Of a DNA stretch of 64,000 nt, positions 2-23,587 are shown one piece after another. The DNA comes from Candidatus Omnitrophota bacterium. Its GTDB lineage: Bacteria; Omnitrophota; Gorgyraeia; Gygaellales; Profunditerraquicolaceae. Position 1 is the stretch's first letter, and every line of letters starts with the position of its first letter. The notes below the pieces were generated by a model, which saw only the letters and a list, made by a program, of their open reading frames with translations, searched no databases and was not told where the DNA came from. The DNA lies in the NCBI GenBank assembly GCA_026387405.1, contig JAPLLV010000057.1:1503-65502 (forward strand). Direction: 5' to 3'. The position numbers and the translations under genes are program-made.

Positions 2-703
2 TGGCAGGATAACTCTAATAATGAGACTGGTTTTATTATTGAGCGCGGTATAGGATCTTCATCCCAATTCTTTTTTAAGATAGGCACCACATCCGCCAAT
101 GTTACTACCTACGTAGACTCTGGTGGTATCAACAGTACCTACTACTATCGTATCCGCGCCCAAAATACTTACGGATACTCCAGCTATTCCAATATAGTAA
201 GCGCAAAGACTGCTAGTGCGTCAAACTCGCCCCCCACAGTCGGCTCAGTTTCTCCTTCAAGTAGTTCTTGCACGGTCAATGGCTCCATTAATTTAACTAC
301 TACTTATTCCGATGCAGATGGCTGGCAGGATATTCAATCTGCCTATCTTCTTGTAAATACCTCGACCAATGGCTCAAACTGTTTTTACGGATATTACAAT
401 CGTAATACAAATCAGCTTTACTTGGGGAATGACGCTAATTCTACGTGGTTAGGAGGTTTTATCCCCGGTTCGGCAAATTCAATCGAAAATTCTTATGCCA
501 AGTTAGACTGTTCGCAGACAACCGTTTCAGGTTCTGGTACAACACTGACCATTAAGTGGAGTTTAATCTTAAAGGATGCATTTTTCGGCATTAGAAATAT
601 ATATTTATATGTAGCCGATAATTCGGGCGCTACCAATACCGGCGGTTTGGCCCAAAAAGGGGATGTGTGTATTTTTAAAACACCTATTGCGCCACCAAAC
701 TAA
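2..703 (+). CDS. 5'-truncated CDS (window edge): C-terminal part of a secreted Ser/Thr/Asn-rich protein with an Fn3-like module
   Basis: Frame 2 is open from nt 2 to the TAA at 701-703; the track only reports it from the first Met at 422. The translation contains ...YYYRIRAQNTYGYSSYSNIVSAKT..., typical of the last strands of a fibronectin-III-like domain. Product is otherwise unknown. Confidence 0.45.
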   Translation, partial: WQDNSNNETGFIIERGIGSSSQFFFKIGTTSANVTTYVDSGGINSTYYYRIRAQNTYGYSSYSNIVSAKTASASNSPPTVGSVSPSSSSCTVNGSINLTTTYSDADGWQDIQSAYLLVNTSTNGSNCFYGYYNRNTNQLYLGNDANSTWLGGFIPGSANSIENSYAKLDCSQTTVSGSGTTLTIKWSLILKDAFFGIRNIYLYVADNSGATNTGGLAQKGDVCIFKTPIAPPN

Positions 704-704
704 T

Positions 705-3700
705 ATGAAACGTAGACTCTTTAAGATACTTTCTATAGTTTTGATTTTTCTCCACTTGTGGATAGTGTGCTTGAGGGATTATAGTTTCGCTGCCAGCCAA
801 CAGGATTCTTCTCAGAATAGTTCGAATACAAACTCTACCAAATCGGAGAAGGCGCCGGCTGTTGACAAAGCAGTGTCTGCGAATTCTGCCAGTACGTCTG
901 CGGTCAGTATGAGTAGTTCTTCAGATTCAAGTATAGTTTTCCCACCAACTCCTTTTCAGGCCTCAAATTTCAATCATGTCCTTGATTCAGTTTCTCCGGA
1001 CATATTCACTGGCAGGGCGCAATTGAGCATTCCAATATCTATTCCTCGCGGGAAAAGAGATATCTCTCCCCAGTTAACAATAGCTTATCAAAGCGGCAAT
1101 GGTACTGGCGTTGTAGGGGTAGGATGGTCCCTCGACTTAGGATCAATTGCCCGTTCGACAAAAAAAGGCGTTCCCAAATATGATTCATCCGATATTTTTA
1201 TTGCGCAAGGCCAGGAATTAACGTCCATTGGTAATAGCGAATACAGAAGCCAGATAGAAGGCAGCTTTGTTAAATACGTATTTGACGGGACAACATGGCT
1301 TGCAGTAGATAAAACAGGAACTAAATATTATTTCGGTTCTACAGATGCCTCGCATGTTACAATTTCGAAAGGAACCTATTCCTGGGCATTGGATAAGATA
1401 ATGGATTTAAAAGGCAATTACCTTACGGTTACATATGACAAAAATGGGAATGAACTTTATCCTTCCAATATCTCCTATACAGCAAACGACTCCACCGGAT
1501 TACCGGCAGAATACCATATTACTTTTACCTATGAGAACAGGTTGGATACTTCAACTACTTATATTATCGGTGATTTAGTACAGTTGCTACGGAGGCTAAC
1601 AAAGATAGAAATCTCCTTTGGCAGCAATCTTATACACAAGTACGTATTCGAATATATACAAAGCCCATCTACCCAGAGAAGTCTTCTGAATAAAATTACC
1701 GAATATGGCGCAGATGGTACAACAGCGTCTCCGCCAATAATCTTTACTTACCGAACAAATACCGGCAGTTGGTCAACTGATCAGCAGAAGTGGCATGCTC
1801 CAGACGGAGATTTTATAACTTCTGGCATGGATCAAGGCAGGAGGCTGTACGATTTGAACGGTGATGGTATGGCTGATTTCGTTGTTGCATGCCACGATTG
1901 GACTCTAGCTTCCAACCGGCAACAACTGATTGAAACCTTTCTTGGTTCAAAGAACGGTTTTAGTGCTACGTCTAACTGGTTGACGGTTCCTGGGGGGTAT
2001 TTTACGTTTTATAATAGGAGTATGGGAGGTACAGGGTATTGGGATAATGGCCGGAGATTGGTAGATTTAACCGGAGATGGGATTCCCGAGCTGCTGGTGG
2101 CAAGTCCCCAGGAATGGGTAAAAGGCGGCCCCTATAAGGATACGTATGAATTTAAATATCCGACTAACTTAAATCCCCAATGGTCTGAGAGTACAAACTG
2201 GAATCTTCCTGAAGGATACTTTGTTTATAGAAATGTGGTTGATGATCCTAATAATCCTAATCCTCCTCCTTTCCCAATTGGTTGGGGGATACTCATCATT
2301 TACCAATTTGACGGTGGGATACGTTTCGCTGATTTAAACGGAGACGGTTTAAATGATTTATCTATCGCCTTAGATACACAACGCTCAGTTCCGCGCGATG
2401 TAAACACTTATATTAATACCGGAAGCGGATGGCAGCAGGATACTCGCTGGAATATTCCTGATGGTAACTACTATAGTACGGGATCAGGAGATGGCGGCGT
2501 ACGCCTGGTAGATGTTAATGGCGATGGGCTGGCCGATGTTTTAATTGCCCGCGATGGCAATAAAGCTACTTATTTAAATAATGGCTCCGGTTGGACAAGA
2601 AACGATGCCTACAATATACCAGATGGAGATTTTTGTGATGGGGGGAGAGACCAGGGAAGGATGCTCGTGGATATTAACGGCGACGGATTGCCAGATCTGG
2701 TTATTGCCCAAAATGGATACCATGCAGTTTATATAAATACGGGTTCCGGCTGGAAGCGAGACGATTCTTTTAACCTTCCTGATGGTGACTTTGTAGATGC
2801 AAATGGGAGTGATCAAGGCAGATACCTGGGAGATTTAGATGGTGACGGGGTAATTGATTCATTGGTAGCAAAAGACGGCTATAAAAAAGCCTACCTTAAC
2901 TTAACAGGTGTTCCAGATTTTCTCATCGGCGTTTCTAATGGTTTAGGCGGAAGTACTAATATCGAATATACCCCTTCAACAGCATACAATAATTACGGTG
3001 CTAATCAGACGGGAAGACTTCCTTTTGCGGTTCAGGCCGTTTCCAGGATAACAAGCAATGACGGACAGGGGAATTCATACGTAACGGCATATTCCTATAG
3101 CGGTGGTTATTATTACGCACCTGACCGGGATTACCGCGGCTTTAACTATGTTAAGGTTACCGATGCTACTGGTAATTACAAAGAAAGCTACTTTAAGCAG
3201 GATGACATCCTTAAAGGGAAACCTTATGAACAGGACACAAGCGATTCATCGGGAAAGCTTCTGGCGAAGACTGTAAATGTATGGCAAGCAACCCAGCTTT
3301 ATCAGGGCGTGAATTTCCCGTTTTTGGCAAAAACCGATAGTTTTATCTATGATGGCTCTAGCTATAAGCAGACCGAGACGCAATACCAATATGATAATTA
3401 TGGTAATACCACGACAGTTACTTCCTGCGGTGATATGAGTTTAACCGGTGATGAGAAATCACAAGTTACTGAATTCGTTTATGATGTTTCGGATTGGATA
3501 GTTGCTCTGCCAAAACACGCTAGTCTGTTAGATGCCCAGGGAAACAAGGTTTCGGAAAAATGGTTTTATTATGATTACCATGCTAATGTGGATGATTTAC
3601 CCACTCTGGGCTTATTAACCAAAGAAGAGAACTTGCTCTACAATCCCTTAACTATTCAATCGGCTAGAGTCTCTACTCAGTATACTTATGACCAGTACGG

Positions 3701-6700
3701 AAATCCTCTTTCGGTAACCGATGCTTTAGGCAGACAGGTTACTACAATGTACGATACGGTCTGTTACAGTTATCCGGTGAACCTGGCCAATGCTTTAACG
3801 CAGAACGTGGCTACGGTTTACTACGGAATAAATGAGCCTAATAATGACAGCGTTTCTGGTTTTGGTCTTGTAGGTCAGGTGAAATCCGTTCAGGATGTCA
3901 ATAATCAAAAAACTTACAACGTTTATGACGCCTTAGGCAGGCTTGTCAAGGTTATCGGGCCAAACGATACTGAAGTTAGTCCCGGTATAGTGTACGAATA
4001 TAATCTTACTCTTTCTCCCGTAAAAGTTACTAAGCGGGTTAAGATTAATTATGACGCACCTCTGCAGTATCTTTCTTCATTTCAATTCTCGGATGGCTTG
4101 AGCAGGATTGTAGAGGTTAAATCTCCCGCTCAAAGCGACATCCAAGGCCAAGCACGCCAGGTTGTCTCCGGCTTAGTAAAGTATGACTCTCGCGGCCAAG
4201 TAAAAGAAAAATATCTCCCTTATTTTGTTTCCGCTTCAGAAGATTTCGAGATTCCGGCATATGATACCCCCCACAATTCTTATGACTATGACGCCCTTGG
4301 CCGCTTAATCAAATCTACCAATCCGGACCTTTCCTATTCAACAATAAGCTATTCGCTTTGGAAAAGGACTGCAACCGATGAAAACGGCCATTCCATAACC
4401 GGGTATAGCGATGCCTATGGAAGAGTCATAAAGGTCCAGGAGCAAAACAACACGCAGATTTACAATACGAATTATCAATACGATACATTGGGTAACCTCA
4501 CGCAAGTTACCGATAACAAAAATAATATTACTCAGATGTGGTATGATTCGTTAGGCAGGAAATTAAAAATGAATGACCCTGATATGGGCATCTGTCTTTA
4601 TGCATATGATGATGTCGGCAACCTAGTTCAGCAGACAGATGCCAAGATCCAGGTTTTATCCTTTAATTATGATTCTTTGAATCGACTGACCACTAAGCTG
4701 GTTAACGGACAAACAATCGTTACTTATTCTTATGATGATTCTAGCAAGACATACTGCATGGGAAGGCTTTCCAATGTTTCTGACCAATCGGGTTCAACTG
4801 GTTTTTATTATGATAACTTAGGGAGGGAAATCAAGTCTGTTAAAACCGTTGATGGAGCTTCTTATGCCGTTGAGCGCACCTACGATGCCCTAGGCAGGAT
4901 CGTTACGTTAAAGTATCCCGACAATTCCATGGTTCAATATAGCTATAACCCTCAAGGGCTGTCCAGGGTTACCGATCTAACATCATCAGCCGATTACGTC
5001 TCTAACATTGATTATTCTGCAACAGGTCAGATAACTAGAATCCAATACGGTAATGGCACAGAAATCGACTATGCCTATGATCCGAATACCTTAAGGCTTT
5101 CTAATCTAATCACCCAATCTCCTTTCGGTAAGGTTCAGGATTTAAGCTATCAGTTTGATAAAATAGGCAACATAAGACAATTAAGCGATTACGTTAATAC
5201 CGCTACCCAATCTTTTTCCTATGATGATTTAAGTCGGCTTATCCAGGCAAGCGGATCGTACGGAACTTTTAGTTATACTTATGATTCAATCGGAAACATG
5301 CTTAGCAAAGAAGGCGTTAATTTAACTTACGGGAAAAACGGGGTATTGCCTCATGCGGTAACTAGATATGGTTCCACAGCTATTGATTATGACGCAAACG
5401 GTAACATGATCGCAAAAGGTAATTTGCAATTAACGTATGATGCTGAAAACCGCCTTATTAAGGCAGAAACTAAACCTAATGGGCAACAGACAGCAAGCGT
5501 TAATTTAACCTTAAATCCCGGGTGGAATTTCTTTTCTTTCCCGGTGGTGCCGGCTAATACGGCGGCATCTTCGGTTCTATCTTCTATAACAGGTAAATTT
5601 GTACAGGTTTCAAGGTATAATCCTTCTACTAAGAATTTCGAACATTATGTAGGGAACTCTAAATATGATCAATTTAGTACATTCGAATATGGCCGGGGTT
5701 ATCAGATTTTTATTTCTAGTTCTTCTCCGGTTACCTTAAGCGTTACCGGTACGCTTCCTTTAAGCCAATCATTAACGCTTAATTCAGGAGTTAATTTAAT
5801 TTTTGCGCCAAGCAATACAGAGTTGCCCGTTGAAAATGCTCTAAGTGGGCTAAAATTAGGAATCCACTATTCCAAAGTTTTATTCTATGATACGGCGCAA
5901 GGGGTATTCCAGGAGTATTCAGGAGTTAAGAAAGACTTTACCACCTTAAAACCGGGAGCAGCGTATTATCTTTACTGTTTAACTTCTTCTACCTGGACAA
6001 TTACTAATTCTTCACTATCATCAGATACCACGACTTTTGTCTACGATGGAGATGGGGAAAGGGTAAAGAAGACGAACACTTCTGGTTCGACCACTTACAT
6101 CGGATCTCTCTTTGAAAAAGACTATTCAGGCAAGACTACCAAATACATCTTTGCGGGCGCTAACCGTATCTGCACAGTGGATTCGACAGGGGAGAAATCT
6201 TTCTACCATTCGGATCATTTGGGTTCCTCTAACGTTATTACCGATTCCACGGGCAGGCAAACCGGCCTCACTGAGTTTACCCCATACGGTTCTGTTTCCA
6301 AGCAAACTGGATCCCATGGTCCCAAGTATAAGTTCACTGGCAAGGAGTTGGATAATACAGGGTTGTATTTCTACGGGGCAAGATATTACGACCCTACCAT
6401 AGGGCGTTTTATCACCGCGGATACGATAGTTCAAAGTCCTTACGACCCGCAAGCCCTGAATCGTTATTCGTATTGTCGAAATAACCCTATTAACTATACG
6501 GATCCTACCGGACATTCGTGGTGGAAAAAGTTTTGGGGGAAAGTGTCGGGATTCCTTGGTGCCGCTGTTGGAGTTGCTTTAGGGTTTATTAACCCATTCC
6601 TTGGAATGTTCGCTTATAGCGCTATTTCAGCCAGCGGGCAAGGTGGTAATTTTGGTCAAAACCTTGGAATCAATTTTGCTAGTAGTTTAGCAGGGTTTGT

Positions 6701-7436
6701 CGTAGGTACCGCAGCTTCGGGAATAGCTTCTAATATTTTTGGTGGGACTTTTTGGCCTGGCTTGGCAGGAGCTGCCTTAGGTGGCTCAGCGGGAGGCGCA
6801 GCCACCTCTGCGATGTTGGGAGGCAATGTCGGGATGGGAGCTTTGTCGGGATTGGCAGGCGGGACAATCGGATATATAGGCGGTTTTGTTTGGCCATTAG
6901 GAGGCGATGCGGTTGCAGGAGGTGTATCTTCTGTGGTTATGGGTGGAGATTTTGGGGAAGGTGCAGCACAAGGAGCTTACTATAATATGGCAGATACAGT
7001 TGGCGGAATACTTGGACCTATGCCAACATTAGGCGAACAAGATCCACAACCAGGCGATATCGCTTTTTTAAAGGCAAACAGTTCTCCTGGATGGGGTATT
7101 TCTTTGTTTGAAGGAGGACCGTTTTCGCATGTGGGGACGGTGACCGATAAAGGGTTAGCAAGTACTAACTTTGGGGAAGATTCTGGATATGTAGATCTGG
7201 GCAAATATAGTAATCGTGGTGCTTATGTTTCAACACGTTATCGTGGTAACCAATCAGTTATCAATGCTGCAATGGCTTTATCCAACCAATCTCCTAAAAT
7301 CCGATATGGATTCTTCTTCGGACAAAAAGTTTGTTCTACTATTACTGTCTCTGCCTTGAATAAAGGTGATAGGGGATGGTGGGGGATTGGACCTAATAGT
7401 CAATTTAATGTAATGAAAACCTATGGTGAGGAATAA
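705..7436 (+). CDS. Tc-toxin-like (TcB-TcC fusion type) RHS/YD-repeat polymorphic toxin with C-terminal variable cargo domain
   Basis: ATG at 705 follows the upstream stop; the N-terminus is a signal peptide (MKRRLFKILSIVLIFLHLWIVC). An SpvB/TcB-like motif is present (FTGRAQLSIPISIPRGKRDISPQLTIAYQSGNGTGVVGVGWSL). There are at least 6 FG-GAP/VCBS-like DxNGDGxxD propeller repeats. Many YD repeats follow (YSYDALGRL, YQYDTLGNLTQVTD, YDSLGRKL...). The RHS repeat-associated core is ...YFYGARYYDPTIGRFITADTIVQSPYDPQALNRYSYCRNNPINYTDPTGH. A ~310-aa non-repeat tail follows. Confidence 0.85.
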   Translation: MKRRLFKILSIVLIFLHLWIVCLRDYSFAASQQDSSQNSSNTNSTKSEKAPAVDKAVSANSASTSAVSMSSSSDSSIVFPPTPFQASNFNHVLDSVSPDIFTGRAQLSIPISIPRGKRDISPQLTIAYQSGNGTGVVGVGWSLDLGSIARSTKKGVPKYDSSDIFIAQGQELTSIGNSEYRSQIEGSFVKYVFDGTTWLAVDKTGTKYYFGSTDASHVTISKGTYSWALDKIMDLKGNYLTVTYDKNGNELYPSNISYTANDSTGLPAEYHITFTYENRLDTSTTYIIGDLVQLLRRLTKIEISFGSNLIHKYVFEYIQSPSTQRSLLNKITEYGADGTTASPPIIFTYRTNTGSWSTDQQKWHAPDGDFITSGMDQGRRLYDLNGDGMADFVVACHDWTLASNRQQLIETFLGSKNGFSATSNWLTVPGGYFTFYNRSMGGTGYWDNGRRLVDLTGDGIPELLVASPQEWVKGGPYKDTYEFKYPTNLNPQWSESTNWNLPEGYFVYRNVVDDPNNPNPPPFPIGWGILIIYQFDGGIRFADLNGDGLNDLSIALDTQRSVPRDVNTYINTGSGWQQDTRWNIPDGNYYSTGSGDGGVRLVDVNGDGLADVLIARDGNKATYLNNGSGWTRNDAYNIPDGDFCDGGRDQGRMLVDINGDGLPDLVIAQNGYHAVYINTGSGWKRDDSFNLPDGDFVDANGSDQGRYLGDLDGDGVIDSLVAKDGYKKAYLNLTGVPDFLIGVSNGLGGSTNIEYTPSTAYNNYGANQTGRLPFAVQAVSRITSNDGQGNSYVTAYSYSGGYYYAPDRDYRGFNYVKVTDATGNYKESYFKQDDILKGKPYEQDTSDSSGKLLAKTVNVWQATQLYQGVNFPFLAKTDSFIYDGSSYKQTETQYQYDNYGNTTTVTSCGDMSLTGDEKSQVTEFVYDVSDWIVALPKHASLLDAQGNKVSEKWFYYDYHANVDDLPTLGLLTKEENLLYNPLTIQSARVSTQYTYDQYGNPLSVTDALGRQVTTMYDTVCYSYPVNLANALTQNVATVYYGINEPNNDSVSGFGLVGQVKSVQDVNNQKTYNVYDALGRLVKVIGPNDTEVSPGIVYEYNLTLSPVKVTKRVKINYDAPLQYLSSFQFSDGLSRIVEVKSPAQSDIQGQARQVVSGLVKYDSRGQVKEKYLPYFVSASEDFEIPAYDTPHNSYDYDALGRLIKSTNPDLSYSTISYSLWKRTATDENGHSITGYSDAYGRVIKVQEQNNTQIYNTNYQYDTLGNLTQVTDNKNNITQMWYDSLGRKLKMNDPDMGICLYAYDDVGNLVQQTDAKIQVLSFNYDSLNRLTTKLVNGQTIVTYSYDDSSKTYCMGRLSNVSDQSGSTGFYYDNLGREIKSVKTVDGASYAVERTYDALGRIVTLKYPDNSMVQYSYNPQGLSRVTDLTSSADYVSNIDYSATGQITRIQYGNGTEIDYAYDPNTLRLSNLITQSPFGKVQDLSYQFDKIGNIRQLSDYVNTATQSFSYDDLSRLIQASGSYGTFSYTYDSIGNMLSKEGVNLTYGKNGVLPHAVTRYGSTAIDYDANGNMIAKGNLQLTYDAENRLIKAETKPNGQQTASVNLTLNPGWNFFSFPVVPANTAASSVLSSITGKFVQVSRYNPSTKNFEHYVGNSKYDQFSTFEYGRGYQIFISSSSPVTLSVTGTLPLSQSLTLNSGVNLIFAPSNTELPVENALSGLKLGIHYSKVLFYDTAQGVFQEYSGVKKDFTTLKPGAAYYLYCLTSSTWTITNSSLSSDTTTFVYDGDGERVKKTNTSGSTTYIGSLFEKDYSGKTTKYIFAGANRICTVDSTGEKSFYHSDHLGSSNVITDSTGRQTGLTEFTPYGSVSKQTGSHGPKYKFTGKELDNTGLYFYGARYYDPTIGRFITADTIVQSPYDPQALNRYSYCRNNPINYTDPTGHSWWKKFWGKVSGFLGAAVGVALGFINPFLGMFAYSAISASGQGGNFGQNLGINFASSLAGFVVGTAASGIASNIFGGTFWPGLAGAALGGSAGGAATSAMLGGNVGMGALSGLAGGTIGYIGGFVWPLGGDAVAGGVSSVVMGGDFGEGAAQGAYYNMADTVGGILGPMPTLGEQDPQPGDIAFLKANSSPGWGISLFEGGPFSHVGTVTDKGLASTNFGEDSGYVDLGKYSNRGAYVSTRYRGNQSVINAAMALSNQSPKIRYGFFFGQKVCSTITVSALNKGDRGWWGIGPNSQFNVMKTYGEE

Positions 7437-7440
7437 AATA

Positions 7441-7830
7441 ATGGCTCTAAAGGTAATAATTCCGATGATTATATCGTTGTCTTTACTGCTCTGTGGCTGC
7501 GTAACAACTAGTCAAGCTAAAATGCCAAATTATGAAGCTCGCAAATCTTATGTCGAGACGCATTCTGAGCTAGCGGTGGAAATAAAACAAGCCATACTTA
7601 AAGGTAAAGTGATAGAGGGCATGACTAAACAAGATGTATTAGTAGCTTGGGGTGAGCCAAGTAAAATACATAGATATAGCGAGCATAAAAGGCTTGTCGA
7701 TGAAACTGATGAGAATACTCATGATGAGAGCTGGCTTTACGATCAGCCTTTTTATTCCTTTGCGCCAAGGAAATTTGTTAGATTTGGTACCGATGGTATT
7801 GTCAATTATGTAAGCGTATATTATAATTAG
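7441..7830 (+). CDS. small lipoprotein, candidate immunity protein for the upstream RHS toxin
   Basis: ATG at 7441 lies 5 nt after the RHS stop. It has a lipoprotein signal with lipobox (MALKVIIPMIISLSLLLCGC). Position immediately 3' of an Rhs C-terminal tip is where immunity genes are found. No recognisable catalytic motif. Confidence 0.5.
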   Translation: MALKVIIPMIISLSLLLCGCVTTSQAKMPNYEARKSYVETHSELAVEIKQAILKGKVIEGMTKQDVLVAWGEPSKIHRYSEHKRLVDETDENTHDESWLYDQPFYSFAPRKFVRFGTDGIVNYVSVYYN

Positions 7831-7854
7831 CCAGTAACCTTTAATAAAGTCAAA

Positions 7855-8049
7855 ATGAGAAAAACTGAACTTTTGGTCTTTATAATTTTAATTCCTCTTT
7901 TGATTATCGGTTGTGCAACTACTCCTGAAGAAAAAGAATACCGAAAGAATAAAGAAATAGTGAATTCAGCAATTCAAGGAAGTAAACCAAAACCAGTTAT
8001 TAATTCAACAACAGCCGTTATATCCGAAACGATTCGAAGACAACACTGA
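7855..8049 (+). CDS. small lipoprotein (possible second/orphan immunity gene)
   Basis: Lipoprotein signal MRKTELLVFIILIPLLIIGCATT; 64 aa; same strand, immediately downstream. Confidence 0.35.
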   Translation: MRKTELLVFIILIPLLIIGCATTPEEKEYRKNKEIVNSAIQGSKPKPVINSTTAVISETIRRQH

Positions 8050-8364
8050 TAAGAAAATTAAGAATATAGTCTGTACAGCCTTTTACATGCTGATTATTTA
8101 TGCAAAAAGCACATCCCTTATTAACACGTATAAAATTCCTTGCAAATTTCCCTCAAATTTCTACCAAAACTGCCACCATGGTTAAGCTCTGAGTCATTCT
8201 GTTCGGTGGTGTAAAACGGCTCAAAGAGATGCGGAAGGTTCTTTGCCGGAAAACCGCAGCCAGCATCAGCTAAGTTTACTGGGGACGGGTTTACTGGAGA
8301 CGCGTCCTAAGGGGACAGGTTAGGCAAGAATAGCCTATTGAAAATAAAGAATTTAGAAGAGGAG

Positions 8365-8405
8365 TTGCGATAACAGGTTTGTAAGAAGTTATCGCAATTT
8401 TTTTT
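8365..8405 (+). terminator. Rho-independent terminator-like hairpin plus T-tract
   Basis: The stem ttgcgataac / gttatcgcaa (10 bp) with a 13-nt loop is followed by tttttttt. Confidence 0.45.
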
Positions 8406-8427
8406 ACAGCAGAGAGGCAGATTGACA

Positions 8428-8455
8428 TTGACAACGCGGAGTTTTAAGTTATAAT
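8428..8455 (+). promoter_or_regulatory. sigma70-type promoter, consensus -35 TTGACA / 16 bp / -10 TATAAT
   Basis: TTGACA at 8428-8433 and TATAAT at 8450-8455, about 140 nt upstream of the first gene of the pilus cluster (8594). A tandem TTGACATTGACA is present. Confidence 0.5.
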
Positions 8456-8593
8456 ACAATGAACTTTAAGCAAGTGGCGTCAGTGAGGTTTAAGGCAGGG
8501 AGTGCTAAGAAAACCCGGACGGCTATAAGCTTATACAATTAATTAACGCCGTCAGGCAGGGTTGTCTGCCGACAGGCAGAGAGGGAGGAAAAG

Positions 8594-9016
8594 ATGGGTC
8601 GGAGGTTGCTGGTTTGTGGGGTTCTTTGTTTTTTAGTTTTAGTTGCCGGTTGCGCTACGTCTAAAAAAGGAAATCTGTCTGGCCAGGAGCAGAATCTAAG
8701 TTCGGCTAATGCTACCGGTATAGACGCGACTGTTCCGGCTGGTCCAGCTGGTGCGGAGAGTCAAAATATTTCAACAGAGTCAAAAGCTACTGAAATGCCT
8801 AATGTTAGCCCAACCAAGAACGCAGGCGCTTTGACTAAAAAGGACATCCAGACCGCTTTAAAAAACGCCGGGTTTTATAACGGCCTCATTGATGGTAAGA
8901 TGGGTCATCACACCAGGAAAGCGATCAGAGAATTTCAGAAGGCGAACGGGTTAAAAGCGGATGGCGTTGCCGGCAAAAAGACCAAGTCTTTACTGGCAAA
9001 ATATCTGTCTAAATAG
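8594..9016 (+). CDS. lipoprotein with C-terminal peptidoglycan-binding (PG_binding_1-like) domain
   Basis: Lipobox LVLVAGCATS. C-terminal ...ALKNAGFYNGLIDGKMGHHTRKAIREFQKANGLKADGVAGKKTKSLL matches the PG-binding domain pattern. Confidence 0.65.
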   Translation: MGRRLLVCGVLCFLVLVAGCATSKKGNLSGQEQNLSSANATGIDATVPAGPAGAESQNISTESKATEMPNVSPTKNAGALTKKDIQTALKNAGFYNGLIDGKMGHHTRKAIREFQKANGLKADGVAGKKTKSLLAKYLSK

Positions 9017-9055: not shown

Positions 9056-10078
9056 ATGGTCATACCGTTTACTCGCCAGCTTTATATTCTCATCAAATCC
9101 GGGATCCCGCTTTTAAGAGCCCTCCAGGTTAATTCTGTTCAGCTGCCCAAAGGAAAATTCAAGGACGCCATCGATGGCGTTATCCAGGAGATCCAGGAAG
9201 GCAAAAATCTTTCCGAGGCCCTCTTGTCCAACAGGAAGTTCTTCTCCTTGTTCTATATCAATATGGTCAAGGCCGGAGAGGTCACCGGTAATTTGACCGC
9301 GGTACTCAAAGAACTTTCTGAGCATCTCGTCCAGCACGACCGCATACGCCAACAGGTGCGCGCTGCTTTTATGTACCCGATTTTTATCTTAGTCGTGGCG
9401 GTCATCATCTTGACGGTGCTTTTGATGTTCGTCCTGCCGATTTTCACCCGCATATTCGCGGACCTCGGAGGGACTCTTCCCCCGGCTACTTTATTTTTAA
9501 TCTGGCTGAGCAAGGTCACGATCCGCTGGGGGTGGTTGGTGTTTTTAATTGTTGGGTCGGCTGTTATGGGCTTAGTGATCCTAGTGCGCAAATCTCCCAG
9601 AGGCAGCTACGTGGTCAATGACCTGGTATGGAAGATCCCTCTTTTCGGCATGCTGGTAAAGACTATGGAGTTGGGCAGGTACTGTCGTACCCTGGGGACG
9701 CTATTATCTTCGGGGGTAACCCTGGTAAAGGCGCTGGAGGTTTTATTTGATACGACTGAATCTTCGGTCCTGCATAAGGCCATCGAAGACATCCGTTTCA
9801 ATATCGAACAGGGCAAAAGCCTTTCTGCGGCTATGGACGAGACAAAGGTTTTCCCCCTGACACTGGTGAGCTTGACCCAGATCGGAGAGGAGAGCGGCAA
9901 ACTCGCGGATATATTCGTTGAGGCGGCAAAGGACTACGAGGATGAAGTCGAGTATTCTATCAAAGGGCTGCTGTCGCTTCTTGAGCCGGCGCTGATATTG
10001 ATCATGGGGGCAATAGTCGGATTTATCGTGATCGCCCTATTTTTCCCGATCTTTACCATGAGCGTAATGGTGAAGTGA
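9056..10078 (+). CDS. pilC: type IV pilus / T2SS inner-membrane platform protein (GspF/PilC family)
   Basis: GspF-domain hallmarks (..NMVKAGEVTGNL.., ..TQIGEESGKLADIF..), three TM segments, 340 aa (short N-terminus). Confidence 0.8.
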   Translation: MVIPFTRQLYILIKSGIPLLRALQVNSVQLPKGKFKDAIDGVIQEIQEGKNLSEALLSNRKFFSLFYINMVKAGEVTGNLTAVLKELSEHLVQHDRIRQQVRAAFMYPIFILVVAVIILTVLLMFVLPIFTRIFADLGGTLPPATLFLIWLSKVTIRWGWLVFLIVGSAVMGLVILVRKSPRGSYVVNDLVWKIPLFGMLVKTMELGRYCRTLGTLLSSGVTLVKALEVLFDTTESSVLHKAIEDIRFNIEQGKSLSAAMDETKVFPLTLVSLTQIGEESGKLADIFVEAAKDYEDEVEYSIKGLLSLLEPALILIMGAIVGFIVIALFFPIFTMSVMVK

Positions 10079-10101
10079 GGCAGGAGCGTAATATTAATAT
10101 A

Positions 10102-10500
10102 ATGAAGAAGATACGGATCCCCGCGCTAAAATCTTTAGTGCGGGGTTTTACTTTAATAGAGATACTGATATCACTTTCTATCTTAGCTCTGGGGATCGTG
10201 ATTATGTTCAGCCTTTTTCCTTTATCTCTGCGTTCCCTGACCTATAGCCGGAAGCTCACCGAGGTTTATTTCCTGGCAGAGAAAAAGATGGAGGAGTATA
10301 AGTCCGTAGAAAATAAAACGACGATAGAAGCGGCGAGCGGCATTGACGGGGATTTACGCTGGAACGCAAATCCCAAAAGTTTGCAGCTTGGGGAGGGACT
10401 GGACGTGATTTATCTTGAGCTTGATATCAACTATGATTTTATGGGGCATGCTGAAAAGCAGAGGTTCGGCACCTACTTTTTTAAGGAGTGCAATTGTTAA
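10102..10500 (+). CDS. prepilin-type N-terminal cleavage/methylation domain pseudopilin
   Basis: MKKIRIPALKSLVRGFTLIEILISLSILALGIV: G|FTLIE class-III signal peptide motif; ATG at 10102 with upstream GGAGG-like RBS. Confidence 0.75.
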   Translation: MKKIRIPALKSLVRGFTLIEILISLSILALGIVIMFSLFPLSLRSLTYSRKLTEVYFLAEKKMEEYKSVENKTTIEAASGIDGDLRWNANPKSLQLGEGLDVIYLELDINYDFMGHAEKQRFGTYFFKECNC

Positions 10501-10859
10501 GGATGGGTAAGTCCGGTCAGGCTGTAGTGGTTGTCATAGCCATACTTTCGATTATTTTTATCGCGGGGATCGCATTTTATGTGCTCTCTCAGGCGGAGAG
10601 GACCGCGAGCATGCGGCACCTGGACAGCCTGCGCTCCAGATACATAGCTGAGGCAGGCGTGGTCTATGCCCAAAAAGTTTTGGAATTGGACAGAAAAGAA
10701 AATCTCATTGATTCAGCCAAGGACAGATGGTTTACAAATTTTGCCGGCAGCGATGTGGATATAGACGGCGATAATATCCCCGAGAGCCGCTGGATAGAGA
10801 TGCCCGACAGCGAAGGAAAGTCTTTTGGGCGTTTCCCGCCGCCCGTTGAACGCGATTGA
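10488..10859 (+). CDS. GspK/PilX-like minor pseudopilin, N-terminal portion (frame 3); probably the same gene as 10825-13179, interrupted by a frameshift
   Basis: N-terminal hydrophobic helix plus ...RHLDSLRSRYIAEAGVVYAQKVLEL... matches the GspK N-region. It stops at 10857-10859, while the adjacent frame-1 ORF has no ATG start. Confidence 0.55.
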   Translation: MQLLRMGKSGQAVVVVIAILSIIFIAGIAFYVLSQAERTASMRHLDSLRSRYIAEAGVVYAQKVLELDRKENLIDSAKDRWFTNFAGSDVDIDGDNIPESRWIEMPDSEGKSFGRFPPPVERD

Positions 10860-13179
10860 GCAGGTGGGAGCGGTCCTGGGGACAAAGGATTTTAACCTGG
10901 TCAAGGATTCTATCACCGTATATTCTAAAGACCCGGAAATAGACGTGAGCCGCAAAAGGAGGGTCTACTTAAACAGTTTATGGCCTCAAAAAGCCCTGGA
11001 ATCGTTTTTAATCAAGGGTGTCAAAGATGCATTTCAGAAAGCCGCGAACTTAAAAGACGCCATCGATACTGATCTAAGCCAAACGCAGCTGATAAAATTT
11101 TCTTTATCTAATCTTGGGCCGTCTGCTCTTGTCGAGGGAGGCGGATGGTCCAGGGTGGGGAACTATTATCAGGCCTTGCGGGGGACAGCGGAAGGTAAAT
11201 TCTCCTGGAGCGGGTTAGCGGTTGATGACGGGGAGTATTATTGTTTTTTCAATGCCCCGGATAACGAAGATACCGTGGGAGAGGTAATTGTCGATGATAG
11301 CGATACGGGCGCCTTGATCCTTTCCGGAGAAGGCCCGGGTAAAAAGGTTAAGGTATCCGGCGGGGCCTTTACCGTGCGCATCAGGCCTTCTAAAGACACG
11401 GATTGCCGGTTTTTGAATATTGAGCTGTCCGACATGATCCCGCGTAATGGCTTACAGAGAAAAGTGGTCAGCGGGACCGAGGCATTAGTGATCAATGAAC
11501 TAATGGTAAAGCTTGCAGCGGAATTTACGTCAGGGACAATTTCAATTACGCCGGGGCAGGATTATAAACATGTATTTTCCGGTGTAAGGGTGGGATCATT
11601 TCATTTACAAATAAAGGCAGGTACCGCCGGCGCGACAGTGGGCGATGTCACGGTAAACGGACAGACCGCAAGTAATATGCACGACGGAGATTATTTTCCG
11701 TCTGTGGTGCATGTGGATTGCGATGACCCAAAAAATAATACAGGGCCGCTAACGCTTGAGATAAGGAATAATTCTGTTTCGAACACCTCTTTCGGCGGCA
11801 TCAAGGTCCTGCAGGAACCCGACGCGGAATACGTCGAGATACTTAATCTTTCCGGAGACACTATTGATTTGAGCAATTTTGTCCTGGTAGTTTATAACAG
11901 TTCAGGGGATCTCGTGCCGGGGTGGCCTGCTACTATACCCAAGGGCGCCAAGATCGATCCCTACCAAGAGCTGGTGTTGGCGGTAGATAGTAATGACGGT
12001 TCTCCCGCTCCGGTTAATCTTAGGAGTAATGGGATCTCGTTTCAATCGGTATGGGGCACGACTGCCACAGGCCTTATCTTTGAAGAGCAGGGTATTATCG
12101 ATAAGCGTTTTGATGCGCTTCCCGATGCCGGAGGAATGGTTATGTTGTGCAACGCGCAGGGAGAGCGTATCGATGCGGTTAAATACGCGGCTCAGTCGCC
12201 CGGATTCACAAGCCTGGAACGCGGTGATCCCAGCGCCGCCGGTGATTCCGACGGCGACGGCCTGTTTGACTTATGGTATATCGGTTCGCAAAAAGAACTG
12301 CACGCTACGCCCGGGAGCGTGAATGAGAATGCCGGGACATACACCATTGATAAGACTACAGGCGAGGCGATTAAACATTATCCCACCGAGGTCAAGGTCT
12401 TTAACCATCCGCTTTCGAACCTTACCGACGTGTTGCAGTTATCATCCGGGCAGGCCTGGAAGAAATTTACTATTTCCGACCTGGCCCAGATGGTGGACCA
12501 TTTTGCCTATGAGGCGCTTAATTTCGATCTTGTCGGCCATTATAAAGAGGGAGATTTCCTGGAGCGCAGCGGGGCATTCGAATCGCGCCACCAGGGTGAA
12601 AGCGGAACTTGGGAGTTTACCGATATCGCGCGCGGAGATTATCTATTGACTATTCTCGGGGATGAGAGCACGCAGTTCTCGGGAAACGAGAAAGTGCAGG
12701 TTTCATTAAAGACCGGCAGCCAGCAGGACTTTACACCCGCCGCAACGATCTTCTTTACCACGCAGGGGATTATATTTTACGGCAAAATAGAATTCTTGAA
12801 AAACCCTTCGCAGCTGACTTTAAAGATTGTCAATAACACCGAAACAAGGATAGCTATAAAATCAATACAGCTTGAGCCGATTTATGTGACACCCGGCCGT
12901 ATCAATGTGAATACCGCCAGGGCCGAAGTCTTACGCGGCATCTTGGGATCGGATTCGCTGGTGCAGACGGTGATAAAAAACCGGCCTATCGGCGCTAAGG
13001 ATAGCAGGAAACTGGGGGTGGGGGACCTGTTTTTGCTGGATTCAAGTTTCCTGGCTTTTCACAACTACCTTACCGTAAAATCCGATGTCTATGAAATAAG
13101 ATGTCGGGGTGAATACCATCCCATAGATAAGATTTTGGCCACCCTGAATATCCGTTCTGTAGTAGAGCGGGGGGAATAG
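10825..13179 (+). CDS. GspK-like minor pseudopilin body with inserted lamin-tail domain (LTD) and C-terminal GspK helix-hairpin-helix region (frame 1)
   Basis: LTD signature ...PDAEYVEILNLSGDTIDLSNFVLVVYNSSGD... GspK-type C-terminus ...GRINVNTARAEVLRGILGSDSLVQTVIKNRPIG... Frame 1 is open from 10798, and the ORF has only a TTG/GTG start. Confidence 0.55.
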   Translation: MGVSRRPLNAIEQVGAVLGTKDFNLVKDSITVYSKDPEIDVSRKRRVYLNSLWPQKALESFLIKGVKDAFQKAANLKDAIDTDLSQTQLIKFSLSNLGPSALVEGGGWSRVGNYYQALRGTAEGKFSWSGLAVDDGEYYCFFNAPDNEDTVGEVIVDDSDTGALILSGEGPGKKVKVSGGAFTVRIRPSKDTDCRFLNIELSDMIPRNGLQRKVVSGTEALVINELMVKLAAEFTSGTISITPGQDYKHVFSGVRVGSFHLQIKAGTAGATVGDVTVNGQTASNMHDGDYFPSVVHVDCDDPKNNTGPLTLEIRNNSVSNTSFGGIKVLQEPDAEYVEILNLSGDTIDLSNFVLVVYNSSGDLVPGWPATIPKGAKIDPYQELVLAVDSNDGSPAPVNLRSNGISFQSVWGTTATGLIFEEQGIIDKRFDALPDAGGMVMLCNAQGERIDAVKYAAQSPGFTSLERGDPSAAGDSDGDGLFDLWYIGSQKELHATPGSVNENAGTYTIDKTTGEAIKHYPTEVKVFNHPLSNLTDVLQLSSGQAWKKFTISDLAQMVDHFAYEALNFDLVGHYKEGDFLERSGAFESRHQGESGTWEFTDIARGDYLLTILGDESTQFSGNEKVQVSLKTGSQQDFTPAATIFFTTQGIIFYGKIEFLKNPSQLTLKIVNNTETRIAIKSIQLEPIYVTPGRINVNTARAEVLRGILGSDSLVQTVIKNRPIGAKDSRKLGVGDLFLLDSSFLAFHNYLTVKSDVYEIRCRGEYHPIDKILATLNIRSVVERGE

Positions 13180-13390
13180 TAATTTCCATCCGATTCATAA
13201 CTCCTTGTAAATAAAGAAGTTTAGGTCCTCTTCAAACAAAGCCTACCATTTCTTCCGATGCATTTTTTATAGCATTAGCGTGTGCCGAATCATATTCTTC
13301 ACATCACCTGTTGCTTTTCGTTCGCGTCGGGACATTGTTCGCGCACGAATTTTTTCGCCGTGCACTACGGCTTATGGCTCGATTCTGAGT

Positions 13391-13432
13391 TCTAGACCCG
13401 CGGTGGAAAGATGCTTCCACCGCGGGTCTGGA
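13391..13432. repeat. REP-like palindromic hairpin (family CCAGACCCGCGGTGGA)
   Basis: tctagacccgcggtggaa / agatgc / ttccaccgcgggtctgga: inverted arms with one mismatch. Confidence 0.7.
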
Positions 13433-13440
13433 ACTGGTCC

Positions 13441-13555
13441 ATATTGTTCGAGCGAGCCCTGAGCGAAGCGAAGGGCGAGTCGAGAACAGGCTCTGTTACT
13501 TCTCGACTCCGGCCTCGCTTACGCTCGGCCTTCGCTCGAAGAATAAAAAAGCCGC
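13441..13555. repeat. interspersed repeat module (ttgttcgagcgag...gagtcgagaa...cttcgctcgaagaataaaa), related to copies at 49196-49290, 19966-20058 and 59931-60013
   Basis: Shares the CGCTCGAAC / TTCTTCGAGCG / TCGAGAAG sub-motifs with those loci. Confidence 0.4.
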
Positions 13556-13612
13556 CGAGTCCCTACCGGAATGACTGTTTCAAAGAAAGGAAAAACCCGC
13601 CGAAAAAAAAGC

Positions 13613-13641
13613 TTGACAAATCGTAAAAAAATACATAAGAT
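13613..13641 (+). promoter_or_regulatory. sigma70-like promoter (-35 TTGACA, 17-bp spacer, -10 TAAGAT) with downstream direct repeats
   Basis: TTGACA at 13613-13618 and TAAGAT at 13636-13641. Direct repeats TATCAAATA x2 and TTCAAAG x2 lie between the promoter and the ATG at 13703, forming a possible operator. Confidence 0.4.
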
Positions 13642-13702
13642 AGTGTCACTTCGTATCAAATATGTTCAAAGTATATCAAATAGGTTAAGAGAGGTTCAAA
13701 GC

Positions 13703-13924
13703 ATGCAAGACATTAACGATTATTTCCTAAAGGAGGTTGAGATGCAAAAGGCATACCTGTCTACACAGGAGGTCGCTAAGGTCCTGGGGATATCCAAGCA
13801 GACCCTCCTGCGCTACGAAAAGAGGAAGATCTTCCCTAAGCCGAAACGTAACCTCATCAACAAACGCAGGGAATATTCCATCCAGGATATCGAAAAGTTA
13901 AAGACGATCATAGGGAGGAGATAA
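13703..13924 (+). CDS. small helix-turn-helix DNA-binding protein (MerR/excisionase-like HTH)
   Basis: ...LSTQEVAKVLGISKQTLLRYEKRKIFPKP... is a classic HTH. ATG at 13703 is preceded by AGAGAGG. The track ORF starts further upstream at 13571. Confidence 0.6.
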   Translation: MQDINDYFLKEVEMQKAYLSTQEVAKVLGISKQTLLRYEKRKIFPKPKRNLINKRREYSIQDIEKLKTIIGRR

Positions 13925-13932
13925 TTACGCCG

Positions 13933-15453
13933 ATGGGATTCCTCCAGCAGAAGAGGATAATGAGCCTGGACATCGATGAGTCTTTCGTCGTGGCTAGAGA
14001 ATTGACAAAGAGAGGCGCTCGTATATCACTGGGGCGCCACAGCACCCTATCCAGCCTAAGCGAACTTATAAAAGACCCCTCGCTTAAGTTTAAAGATGAA
14101 GGCGTAGTCATTAACGCCCCGACCCAGATCGTATACTTTCGCAGCTTCGCTATTAACCCTGGGTTATCGAAATTATTGAAATTGAAAAACAGAAAGTCCC
14201 GGGAAAAAGAAATATCGACTTTTATTGCCCGGCAGAATCTTCCCATAAAATTAGAGGAGTGCTACTGGACCATATTCATTCTAAATGACAACTTGAATCT
14301 TGTCGCTGCCAGAAAAGAGATCATAGAGAGGCATATCGCAATAGTGGAAAACCTGGGATTGAGGGTAGTAGGGGTTATACCTTCGATCGTGTCGCTGTAC
14401 AATGTCTTTATATATAATTATCCAAAGAATAAGAACCGGTTTGCCCTTTTGAATATAAAGAGTTCCGCGAGCGATATGATCATCTATGAGGCCAGGCATT
14501 TATGGATATGCCCTATTTCTGTAGGGTCTCATACGCTAAGACAGGATGAATCTGCGGGGGAGAAATTCTCTCTGGAGATCCAGCGCACTCTCAATTCTTA
14601 CTATATACAGAATAACGCCAGGGAAAAGAGTATTCTTCCGTTTTACCTAAGCGGCCAGGATCTGTTTTCGAGCCTGGCATTCTCCCTGAAAAAGGCCCTG
14701 GGAGAGGTCGAGCTTATAGAATTCGAGCCTTTTAAAAATGTCGTCTTCCCGAAAGATTCCAAGGTTAACCGCCAGGTAAGCACCTTGAGCCTGGGGTTAG
14801 GCATTACGTATTTCCGGATGCCGCAAACGATAAATGTCAATCTCCTCCGGGAGAAGATGCTTAAGGCGCAGCATCTTAACCAGGTTAAATTATTTAAAAA
14901 GATATCCATACCGCTTATGATAATCAGTGTTTTGATCCTGGGGCTGGTGAATATCAACCTTATAAAAGATGTTAAGGATCAGATTTCATTATATAAGCAA
15001 AGTAATTTATATGTTTCTAAGATTTTGCCTGAATTGAAATTGCTAAAGTCTCAGAAGGATAAGTATCAGAAACCCCTGGATTTCCTGCGCGGCAGGCTCA
15101 ACCGCCAGATACTTTTCCTCAAGGCGCTGGCTGCTATTTCTGAAGGCAGGCCTAAGACCGCGGAGATAAGGGAATTTTCTGCCGAGGTGAAGGACGCAAA
15201 ATTGCAGGTCCTTCTTTCCGGTACCGGGCCGTCATACGCCGAGATCAACGAGTTCCTGAATAATATCAGGAAAAACGAAGAGATCAAAGAGACTAAGATC
15301 ATTGCTTCAAGCGCTGCGGGAGGCGAGAGTTCCGGAGGGCAGATTAATTTTAAATTACGTTTTGAAATGCCGGTTCCGGAACCAGTCTCGGTTAAGGCGC
15401 AGGCTGAGAATACCACAGCTGTCAAGAATGTGCAAGGAACGGCTAAGAAATGA
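13933..15453 (+). CDS. putative PilM/PilN-like fusion (cytoplasmic actin-like domain + TM + periplasmic coiled coil) of the pilus assembly platform
   Basis: 506 aa; a mid-protein TM segment (ISIPLMIISVLILGLVNINLI) is followed by a coiled coil, and the position between pilC and the secretin fits. The N-terminus is not a canonical PilM, so the assignment is tentative. Confidence 0.45.
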   Translation: MGFLQQKRIMSLDIDESFVVARELTKRGARISLGRHSTLSSLSELIKDPSLKFKDEGVVINAPTQIVYFRSFAINPGLSKLLKLKNRKSREKEISTFIARQNLPIKLEECYWTIFILNDNLNLVAARKEIIERHIAIVENLGLRVVGVIPSIVSLYNVFIYNYPKNKNRFALLNIKSSASDMIIYEARHLWICPISVGSHTLRQDESAGEKFSLEIQRTLNSYYIQNNAREKSILPFYLSGQDLFSSLAFSLKKALGEVELIEFEPFKNVVFPKDSKVNRQVSTLSLGLGITYFRMPQTINVNLLREKMLKAQHLNQVKLFKKISIPLMIISVLILGLVNINLIKDVKDQISLYKQSNLYVSKILPELKLLKSQKDKYQKPLDFLRGRLNRQILFLKALAAISEGRPKTAEIREFSAEVKDAKLQVLLSGTGPSYAEINEFLNNIRKNEEIKETKIIASSAAGGESSGGQINFKLRFEMPVPEPVSVKAQAENTTAVKNVQGTAKK

Positions 15454-15529
15454 ACCCCGCACCTTCTAAGGCATTCATCGGAGGGCTCGGAGGGATGAGT
15501 AAACTGCTGAATAAAAAAGAAGGTGCGGG

Positions 15530-19890: not shown

Positions 19891-19892
19891 AA

Positions 19893-20058
19893 TTGTCATT
19901 GCGAACCCCCAAAGGGGGTGAAGCAATCACGTTTGAGATTGCCGCGTCGCCTGCGGCTCCTCGCTCGAACAATATAGTTTATTCTTCGAGCGGAGCGAAC
20001 GAAGTGAGCGTAGTCGAGAAGATAAAATTGTCGGTTCGCTCGAACAGTATTCTTGGGG
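19893..20058. repeat. composite repeat: RPE-like MITE copy B plus a TTCTTCGAGCGG...TCGAGAAG module
   Basis: ttgtcattgcgaacccccaaagggggtgaagcaatcacgtttgagattgc... is ~90% identical to copy D (23461-23555). Its 3' part matches 59931-60013. Confidence 0.65.
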
Positions 20059-20096
20059 TTAAGCAACAAATTCTATGATTAGGAGATTTCATAACG

Positions 20097-21758: not shown

Positions 21759-21792
21759 CATCGTCATTCAGACTATGTCAGAATACCATTTT

Positions 21793-21897
21793 TCGTCATT
21801 GCGAGCGACCAACGGGAGCGAAGCAATCTCAAAAACGTGATTGCTTCTCCGCCTTCGGCGGATCGCAATGACAACATGTTTGTGTCTCGCAATGACA
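21793..21897. repeat. RPE-like MITE, copy C
   Basis: tcgtcattgcgagcgaccaacgggagcgaagcaatctcaaaaacgtgattgcttc...gatcgcaatgacaacatgtttgtgtctcgcaatgacaag, with a duplicated right terminus. Confidence 0.7.
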
Positions 21898-21907
21898 AGT
21901 TGAAAAA

Positions 21908-23452: not shown

Positions 23453-23460
23453 AATAAAGC

Positions 23461-23555
23461 TCGTCGGGTCATTGCGAACCCCCGAAGGGGGTGAAGCAAT
23501 CACGTTTGAGATTGCGTCGTCGCCCGCCTGCGGCGGGCTCCTCGCAATGACGGGG
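23461..23555. repeat. RPE-like MITE, copy D
   Basis: tcgtcgggtcattgcgaacccccgaagggggtgaagcaatcacgtttgagattgcgtcg...ctcctcgcaatgacgg. Confidence 0.7.
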
Positions 23556-23587
23556 AGATAAGGAAGTGTAAATAAACGGCATTTTTT

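Follow-up and report, generated by a model that had tools for sequence, protein, structure and literature searches.

Zhang, de Souza, Anantharaman, Iyer & Aravind (2012) described a TcdB/TcaC class of toxins that combines a signal peptide, an SpvB domain and an integrin-like propeller with RHS repeats, variable tips and immunity proteins (Table 1 of PMC3482391). For the Tc toxins, Song et al. reported immunity genes in none of 1,608 loci, and both natural B-C fusions and tcC genes located apart from tcA are known (PMC7861908); in a further report, the Tc toxins of Yersinia entomophaga are described as being released by cell lysis (PMC10847048). The mosquito protein SGS1 (8fjp) has an Rhs shell with inserted sugar-binding β-sandwiches, and predicted transmembrane helices are stored in this shell after an aspartyl-protease site and are followed by a toxin domain (PMC9935623). 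Here we compare these systems with an Rhs gene at positions 705 to 7436 of a 64,000-nucleotide stretch of DNA from a Candidatus Omnitrophota bacterium (GenBank assembly GCA_026387405.1, contig JAPLLV010000057.1, positions 1,503 to 65,502), hereafter the window.

The gene is best filed as a TcdB/TcaC-type Rhs polymorphic toxin, a known kind of system; strictly speaking, it is no Tc (ABC) toxin. This assignment is based on its signal peptide, an overlapping lipoprotein immunity gene, orphan cassettes in its relatives and the lack of TcA in the ten related loci that were inspected, which together set it apart from insecticidal ABC Tc toxins and give it the look of a weapon used in competition among bacteria rather than against insects. 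With a probability of roughly 0.6, we regard its product as a Sec-exported, TcA-independent toxin that carries its own immunity gene and acts by the mechanism proposed below. The open reading frame (ORF) spans positions 663 to 7436 of the forward (+) strand, on which all features of the gene lie, and translation from the ATG at 705 (MKRRLF...) gives a protein of 2,243 amino acids (aa). An identical protein is present on two public contigs of ~8 kb, for which gene callers also chose the start at 705. A sequence-only reading of this DNA had proposed the same ORF with, in order, a signal peptide, an SpvB domain, an FG-GAP propeller, a YD shell, an Rhs core bearing the GRF..DP and DPTG motif of an aspartyl autoprotease, and a variable C-terminal region. 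Each of these was recovered here, the domains and signal peptide through hidden Markov model checks (SpvB, RHS_repeat, TIGR03696) and inspection of the N-terminus, while domain matches, PDB matches and the protease alignment support its broader proposal of a TcB-TcC fusion architecture whose Rhs shell would enclose a C-terminal toxin. Domains were called with Pfam and NCBIfam models on the whole protein and on fragments of it, and structures were compared by sequence search of the PDB. Loci of related sequences that were fetched for comparison (n=89) are designated by L-numbers and homologous proteins by P-numbers.

The N-terminus reads as a Sec-type signal peptide (705 to 791, aa 1-29, MKRRLFKILSIVLIFLHLWIVCLRDYSFA↓A), in which KRR, a hydrophobic core and SFA↓A were recognized by eye. 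Signal peptides likewise start nearly all of 24 full-length relatives, across phyla. A Ser/Thr/Asn-rich low-complexity linker, taken from the translation (792 to 989, aa 30-95), leads into the SpvB/TcB-type N-terminal domain (990 to 1799, aa ~96-365), which was matched by Pfam SpvB at 8e-22 with the whole protein and at 1e-25 with the N-terminal 370 aa. PDB matches in this region were to TcdB1, YenB and SpvB chains, and the SIPISIPRG... motif quoted in the sequence-only reading lies at aa 108. The six-bladed FG-GAP (integrin-like) β-propeller that follows (1800 to 2879, aa ~366-725) was identified by FG-GAP_3 (1e-16), FG-GAP (6e-12) and six D-x-[NDT]-G-D-G blade motifs at aa 383, 454, 543, 603, 656 and 710. 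A TcdB_toxin_midN region (PF12256, 2e-26; 2820 to 3206, aa 706-834) precedes a YD/RHS repeat shell (3207 to 5486, aa ~835-1594; RHS_repeat 2e-35, YD_repeat_2x 5e-24) that resembles solved Rhs shells. Among solved structures, engineered TcdB2-TccC3 fusions matched best (1.4e-41); other Rhs shells, YenB/YenC2, Tse5, SGS proteins and teneurin-like proteins came next.

The last YD repeat and the Rhs core with its aspartyl autoprotease occupy positions 6015 to 6515 (TIGR03696 at aa 1858-1937, 2e-22). Residue-by-residue alignment with TccC3 places GRFITAD (aa 1900) and YTDPTGH (DPTGH at aa 1933) opposite GRWLSSDPAG and LLDPDGL, respectively, and thus both autoprotease aspartates are retained as candidate catalytic residues D1906 (nt 6420-6422) and D1933 (nt 6501-6503); both are also conserved in alignment with YenC2 and RHS2. 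Since chains of YenC2, TccC2, an Rhs-family protein and several TcdB2-TccC3 fusions terminate at the position equivalent to DPTG, cleavage is predicted just after DPTG (aa 1933-1936). A type VI Rhs effector was considered and rejected: Pfam and NCBIfam revealed no PAAR, prePAAR or VgrG in the Rhs protein and no type VI secretion system genes in the 64-kb window, and the N-terminus is taken up by the signal peptide. The closest full-length relatives are from Omnitrophota (L011, 55% identity; L007, 50%; L008, 41%; and L010, from Candidatus Omnitrophus fodinae, 37%), and the SpvB-propeller-RHS layout recurs at 25-37% identity in Nitrospirota, Desulfobacterota, Patescibacteria, Planctomycetota, SAR324, Chloroflexota and others.

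Downstream of DPTGH the cargo comprises 306 residues in two parts, a glycine-rich hydrophobic segment and a C-terminal toxin domain (7023 to 7433, aa 2107-2243). The latter is a predicted Cys-His hydrolase with the circularly permuted NlpC/P60 fold of the YaeF/YiiX type. An AlphaFold2 model built from the homologue alignment reached a pLDDT of 90.7, and a profile of the tip family matched YiiX by sequence (3.6e-5) with the His and Cys aligned. The tip shows the order typical of the permutation, with the catalytic His N-terminal to the catalytic Cys. Its key residues are H2142 (nt 7128-7130), Y2201 and C2210 (nt 7332-7334); H2142 and C2210 are invariant and Y2201 is nearly so among 15 tip homologues, which further share invariant GD, F-x-H, C-S and G-x-G-P-N-x-Q motifs. 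A profile search of 1.84 billion representative proteins returned only 109 clusters, the strong ones being C-termini of SpvB/propeller/RHS proteins of 2,100-2,800 residues and the weak ones stand-alone Peptidase_C92 (PF05708) proteins.

The predicted cognate immunity gene (7423 to 7830, +; alternative start at 7441) overlaps the toxin stop codon; its product, a lipoprotein with lipobox LLCG↓C, has weak matches of the BamE/DUF2845 type. Its pairing with the tip was established by a local profile search across all 89 fetched loci. The YiiX-like tip was found in seven distinct places, namely the window, the main gene of L004, orphans in L003, L004 and L084, and L086 and L089. In six of the seven, the next ORF encodes the same lipoprotein family (E<=1e-43); the remaining one, which belongs to a divergent tip subgroup, is followed by a different lipoprotein. 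Among the 89 loci, those without a YiiX-like tip yielded no comparably strong lipoprotein match, only other BamE-like lipoproteins at E>=7e-9. Where the Gly-rich segment is joined to another final domain (L011, L007, L088 and the second L089 cassette), the next gene encodes a membrane or secreted protein unrelated to this family. The lipoprotein therefore tracks the enzyme tip, not the Gly-rich segment, an indication that toxicity resides in the enzyme, and since all of these immunity proteins are lipoproteins or membrane proteins, an action in the cell envelope is suggested. Taken together, these patterns identify the tip and the lipoprotein as a putative toxin-immunity pair.

The arrangement around the tips is that of a modular system. 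Orphan cassettes of core, tip and immunity gene lie downstream of the main Rhs genes of L003, L004 and L084, and the short contig L089 carries cassette arrays. The variable C-terminal region is evident in the two closest full-length relatives, L011 and L007, which cease aligning with the window protein at aa ~2087-2100 and then diverge. Directly after the immunity gene is a second small ORF (7855 to 8049, +; 64 aa, GC 32%) for a lipoprotein with lipobox IIG↓C. Related loci contain no homologue of it beyond similarity at the level of the signal peptide, and whether it is part of the toxin system is uncertain.

With respect to the substrate, YiiX holds a fatty acid in a hydrophobic pocket (PMC3142127). 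Tox-Act1 of Salmonella, a permuted NlpC/P60 toxin reported in 2026, exerts its toxicity solely in the periplasm and, in vitro, cleaves phosphatidylglycerol and phosphatidylethanolamine; its immunity protein is membrane-associated, and TseH of Vibrio cholerae displayed phospholipase activity in one liposome assay (PMC12994826). Because of these three precedents, we propose a lipid substrate for the tip, which by analogy may act on fatty-acyl bonds as a phospholipase, acyltransferase or lipid amidase. The alternative that survives best keeps the same delivery and makes the tip a peptidoglycan amidase or endopeptidase in the manner of classical NlpC/P60 effectors such as Tse1/Tae, so that the target would be lysed via its cell wall. 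The fold would accommodate either substrate, and the precedents just cited point to lipids; we consider the cell-wall alternative unlikely.

The first part of the cargo is a glycine-zipper hydrophobic segment (6543 to 6905, aa 1947-2067). None of its 121 residues is charged, 27% are Gly and there are 13 GxxxG motifs; no other uncharged run in the protein is as long. Pfam (E<=10) returned no match to it, and the PDB sequence search gave only a chance match to SecA (E=2). A like segment precedes differing tips in P0006/L088, the second cassette of L089, L011 and L007. Among 90 distinct Rhs tips of the fetched loci, a Gly/Ala-rich start was present in all Omnitrophota examples and in some from Nitrospirota, Gammaproteobacteria and Chloroflexota, and was lacking in most others, amounting to about a fifth overall. 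In L088 the segment is joined to a short tip that is paired with a two-helix membrane protein. In the orphan cassette of L089 (2389-3989), it is followed by a tip with CCMRHDAC (CCxxHDxC) and then by a 137-residue multi-pass membrane protein; this motif is reminiscent of phospholipase A2, and the cassette adjoins another that is 79% identical to the window's tip.

These properties raise the question of whether the segment is itself the toxin, forming an ion-conducting pore in the inner membrane like Tse5 and leaving the NlpC/P60 domain as an accessory. The 121 uncharged residues, the 13 GxxxG motifs and the recurrence in about a fifth of the sampled Rhs tips are what such a pore would call for, and one report describes glycine-zipper C-termini that depolarize membranes in other polymorphic toxins, for example EsxX (PMC12744356). 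However, the immunity family follows the enzyme tip, and where the segment is retained with another tip, as in L011, L007, L088 and the second cassette of L089, the genes downstream are unrelated. The His and Cys of the enzyme are moreover invariant, and the segment has no sequence similarity to solved chains, Tse5 included. We thus view a toxic pore as improbable.

The domain matches over the cocoon also invite a reading of the protein as a genuine Tc BC subunit, whose propeller would dock on a pentameric TcA encoded elsewhere in the genome, with TcA injecting the cargo into eukaryotic cells. Its best solved matches are TcdB2-TccC3 (1e-41) and YenB/YenC2, it contains SpvB, propeller and TcdB_midN regions, natural B-C fusions and tcC genes distant from tcA are known (PMC7861908), and only 64 kb of the genome is visible. 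Searches of every large ORF in the 64-kb window for TcA domains (VRP1, TcA_TcB_BD or neuraminidase-like) nevertheless found none, in agreement with the sequence-only reading, and none was present in the flanks of the five Omnitrophota loci L003, L004, L007, L011 and L084. The Sec signal peptide of the protein contrasts with the release by lysis described for Yersinia entomophaga in PMC10847048, and its immunity lipoprotein and orphan cassettes contrast with the lack of any immunity gene in 1,608 Tc loci (PMC7861908). The same signal peptide is also carried by relatives from Patescibacteria, Nitrospirota and Chloroflexota. A Tc BC subunit is accordingly very unlikely. The sequence-only reading had inferred kinship with insecticidal Tc toxins while allowing that a gene with no delivery partner would be a stand-alone Rhs; the architectural kinship stands, but the signal peptide, the immunity gene, the orphan cassettes and the lack of TcA in related loci place the gene on the stand-alone side.

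Candidate TcA-like proteins near Rhs genes were also rejected. The giant gene of the window (25958 to 46048, +), which encodes 6,696 residues, was matched by Pfam in neither of its halves. Four distant relatives from Planctomycetota and SAR324 (L018, L019, L030 and L073) are preceded by large genes, but these encode β-helix/PMP, Laminin_G or P_proprotein proteins. In the Planctomycetota loci L018 (600-9152), L030 (1-9894) and L073 (4101-9842), a β-helix/PMP-repeat or Laminin_G protein of 1,900 to >3,300 aa stands directly before the Rhs gene, and a large secreted partner other than TcA may be a recurring feature.

Immediately upstream of the window's Rhs gene is the 3' part of a gene that runs off the window (2 to 703, +). 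It encodes an Fn3-like segment and a ~140-aa repeat domain and has no Pfam or NCBIfam match. The sequence-only reading had called it Fn3-like and not obviously TcA, and it is indeed not TcA: in L007, the Rhs gene adjoins a gene for a 428-aa protein with a signal peptide (L007 8708-9994), two repeats of which show 53% and 45% identity to the product of the window's upstream gene. Its stop codon (701-703) ends 1 nt before the Rhs start, and given this spacing the two genes are probably co-transcribed. In the closest relatives, too, secreted proteins with the ~140-residue repeat are encoded directly before the Rhs gene and seem to be transcribed together with it. L011 has a Dockerin/PKD/Fn3_assoc protein in the same upstream position, and L004 and L084 have no such gene. 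Because the related loci differ in this way, we regard the upstream gene as an occasional and not a defining partner; its product may be a secreted accessory or adhesin.

A further feature of the protein is a tandem all-β module of two ~88-aa units (5487 to 6014, aa 1595-1770), inserted in the shell directly before the Rhs core. Pfam at E<=10 gave no match. A homologue search returned 2 matches, and a profile made from the resulting 3 sequences returned 23. Its homologues (P0018, P0122-P0140) share a 'GWNLISxP' motif, and the paired units recur at the C-termini of various surface proteins from bacteria and archaea, whose other domains are of the P_proprotein, polysaccharide lyase, cadherin-like, fn3, PKD or β-helix type. 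The predicted model of the module is confident, yet it has no solved structural relative. In sister Rhs proteins, the RHS-repeat region holds Dockerin and fn3 domains or Laminin_G_3. The module probably lies on the shell exterior and, as a reasonable guess from the company its homologues keep, may bind surfaces. The idea that the whole protein is a non-toxic surface adhesin or a teneurin-like scaffold of an epibiotic bacterium can draw on these inserted modules, on teneurin-like and SGS proteins among the solved matches and on the adjacent adhesin-like gene, but it is hardly credible in view of the intact autoprotease motif, a tip that appears catalytically intact (His and Cys kept), the co-varying immunity gene and the orphan cassettes.

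Returning to the TcA-independent toxin that we favor, we propose the following mechanism. By homology to solved TcB-TcC, the SpvB-like domain, the propeller and the YD shell would form a closed cocoon. The Rhs-core protease (D1906/D1933) would cut after DPTG, freeing the cargo of ~306 residues while it remains held inside the shell. In the target cell, the glycine-zipper segment would most likely insert into the membrane, where it would anchor or translocate the enzyme, and the YiiX-type tip, judging from its fold and family, would most likely cut fatty-acyl bonds at the periplasmic face, in membrane phospholipids or in lipoproteins. The immunity lipoprotein from the overlapping gene would neutralize the enzyme in the periplasm of the producer, a compartment that the toxin must cross after Sec export. 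More speculatively, the inserted β-module, and possibly the upstream Fn3/repeat protein, could bind the target surface. For passage of the folded cocoon across the outer membrane, an adjacent type II secretion-like cluster is a candidate only.

Several points weigh against this proposal. Of the genome itself, the TcA search covered the 64-kb window only, and a TcA could be encoded elsewhere. The secretion cluster is not syntenic with the Rhs gene in L007 or L011 and is served by a consensus-match promoter of its own. For the glycine-rich segment, no sequence relative with a known function was found, and it could simply be a flexible or packing segment. Pfam at E<=10 returned nothing on the tip or on the whole cargo, the Peptidase_C92 model (PF05708) missing the window sequence as well, and the third catalytic position varies in the tip alignment (A/V/M/Q/H/D), with a conserved Ser next to it. 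The tip substrate could instead be peptidoglycan or lipoprotein.

A bolder version of the proposal is that delivery is self-contained and free of TcA, with the β-module binding prey and the stored zipper segment forming a conduit or anchor that carries a lipid-cutting enzyme. The protein would then be a weapon of ultra-small, presumably predatory or epibiotic Omnitrophota and a bacterial prototype of the SGS1 arrangement. We put this forward tentatively, as possible and less than probable.

The type II secretion/pilus-like cluster extends from 9056 to 25936 and encodes T2SSF, pseudopilins, a K-like protein with a lamin-tail domain, PilN, a secretin, T2SSE and a tetratricopeptide repeat protein. 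It precedes the giant gene, an arrangement that has been described for Omnitrophota (bioRxiv 10.1101/2023.11.21.568195), so that the rest of the window agrees with an origin in this phylum. As a conserved partner of the Rhs gene the cluster was rejected, L007 and L011 having unrelated downstream genes and the cluster its own consensus promoter. Between the toxin locus and the cluster is a 540-nt gap (8050-8593) with a perfect TTGACA-16-TATAAT at 8428-8455, and Rfam found nothing in 7800-8700. The secretin (16636-19890, +) has a Glu/Lys/Gln/Arg-rich extension of ~450 residues, probably a coiled coil, before its Secretin_N and Secretin domains, which accounts for the strong AT skew (0.34) seen at 16-18 kb. 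The giant gene is followed directly by a stretch (46089-47868, +) that encodes a DUF4082 protein and another protein with a match to the ALK/LTK glycine-rich domain (4e-10).

The Rhs gene had appeared AT-rich by eye, which had been called consistent with horizontal acquisition. Its GC content is indeed 42.7%, whereas stretches of equal length elsewhere in the sequence have 48.8% ± 1.0% (minimum 46.7%), and its GC content at third codon positions (GC3) is 38% versus 55-65% in the adjoining secretion genes. The tetranucleotide distance, however, was only ~1.8 standard deviations above that of other windows, a weaker signal than GC. Since this deviation is weak, we do not treat transfer as proven; judged from GC3, horizontal acquisition of the gene is plausible. 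Genes for an IS200/IS605-type Y1 transposase and a '23S rRNA intervening sequence' protein repeatedly flank Omnitrophota Rhs loci (L004 1052-1399 and 11109-11777; L084 486-1481; L088 2092-2760), thereby hinting at mobility of the toxin islands.

On the question of how cargo enters cells from Rhs cocoons that lack both a TcA channel and a type VI spike, the present family offers a testable candidate: a long zipper segment that links the cleavage site to exchangeable enzymes which seem to be directed at membranes. A YiiX-type permuted NlpC/P60 tip with a matched lipoprotein immunity family is also added to the tips of polymorphic toxins, shortly after the first such lipid-targeting toxin was characterized, and the locus supplies a first candidate toxin-immunity pair for Omnitrophota, whose members are suspected of being predators or parasites. 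Current understanding is not overturned by these findings, the overall kind of system having been known since 2012.

The known systems resemble the locus in different parts. The tip has the fold of YaeF/YiiX (MEROPS C92, PF05708; 2if6, 3kw0; PMC3142127) and the same residue order, GD...His...Tyr...Cys. Characterized members of that family are small housekeeping proteins and not toxin tips, however, the Pfam model misses the window tip, and the third catalytic residue is not conserved in the window tip family. The Tc BC proteins, Photorhabdus TcdB2-TccC3 (4o9x) and Yersinia YenB-YenC2 (4igl), are the solved proteins that match best across SpvB domain, shell and Rhs core, and they share the two catalytic Asp and the DPxG cleavage motif with the window protein. 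The window protein differs from them as a single fused gene with a signal peptide, an immunity gene, orphan cassettes and no nearby TcA, and in a cargo that starts with a long hydrophobic Gly-rich segment.

SGS1 shows the same cargo order as the window protein, together with propellers, β-sandwich domains inserted in the shell and independence of TcA (PMC9935623). The Rhs cores of the two match at E=4e-11. In contrast to the window protein, SGS1 is eukaryotic and 3,364 aa long, with two propellers, inserts of the carbohydrate-binding module or lectin type and another toxin domain, and its helical segments are unrelated in sequence to the glycine-zipper segment. A bacterial origin has been proposed for mosquito SGS1.

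The TcdB/TcaC-type toxins differ from the window protein in detail. The text of PMC3482391 does not contain the words 'YaeF' or 'permuted', which describe the YiiX-like permuted NlpC/P60 tip found here, and does not list Omnitrophota; the glycine-zipper pre-toxin segment and the inserted tandem β-module are further differences. As far as we found, the YiiX-type permuted NlpC/P60 tip, its lipoprotein immunity family, the modular glycine-zipper pre-toxin segment and the inserted β-module without a solved relative have not previously been catalogued. Set against these differences, the window gene displays every defining feature of the TcdB/TcaC type, including a conserved body that ends in a variable tip, an immunity gene linked to it and, in relatives, orphan cassettes.

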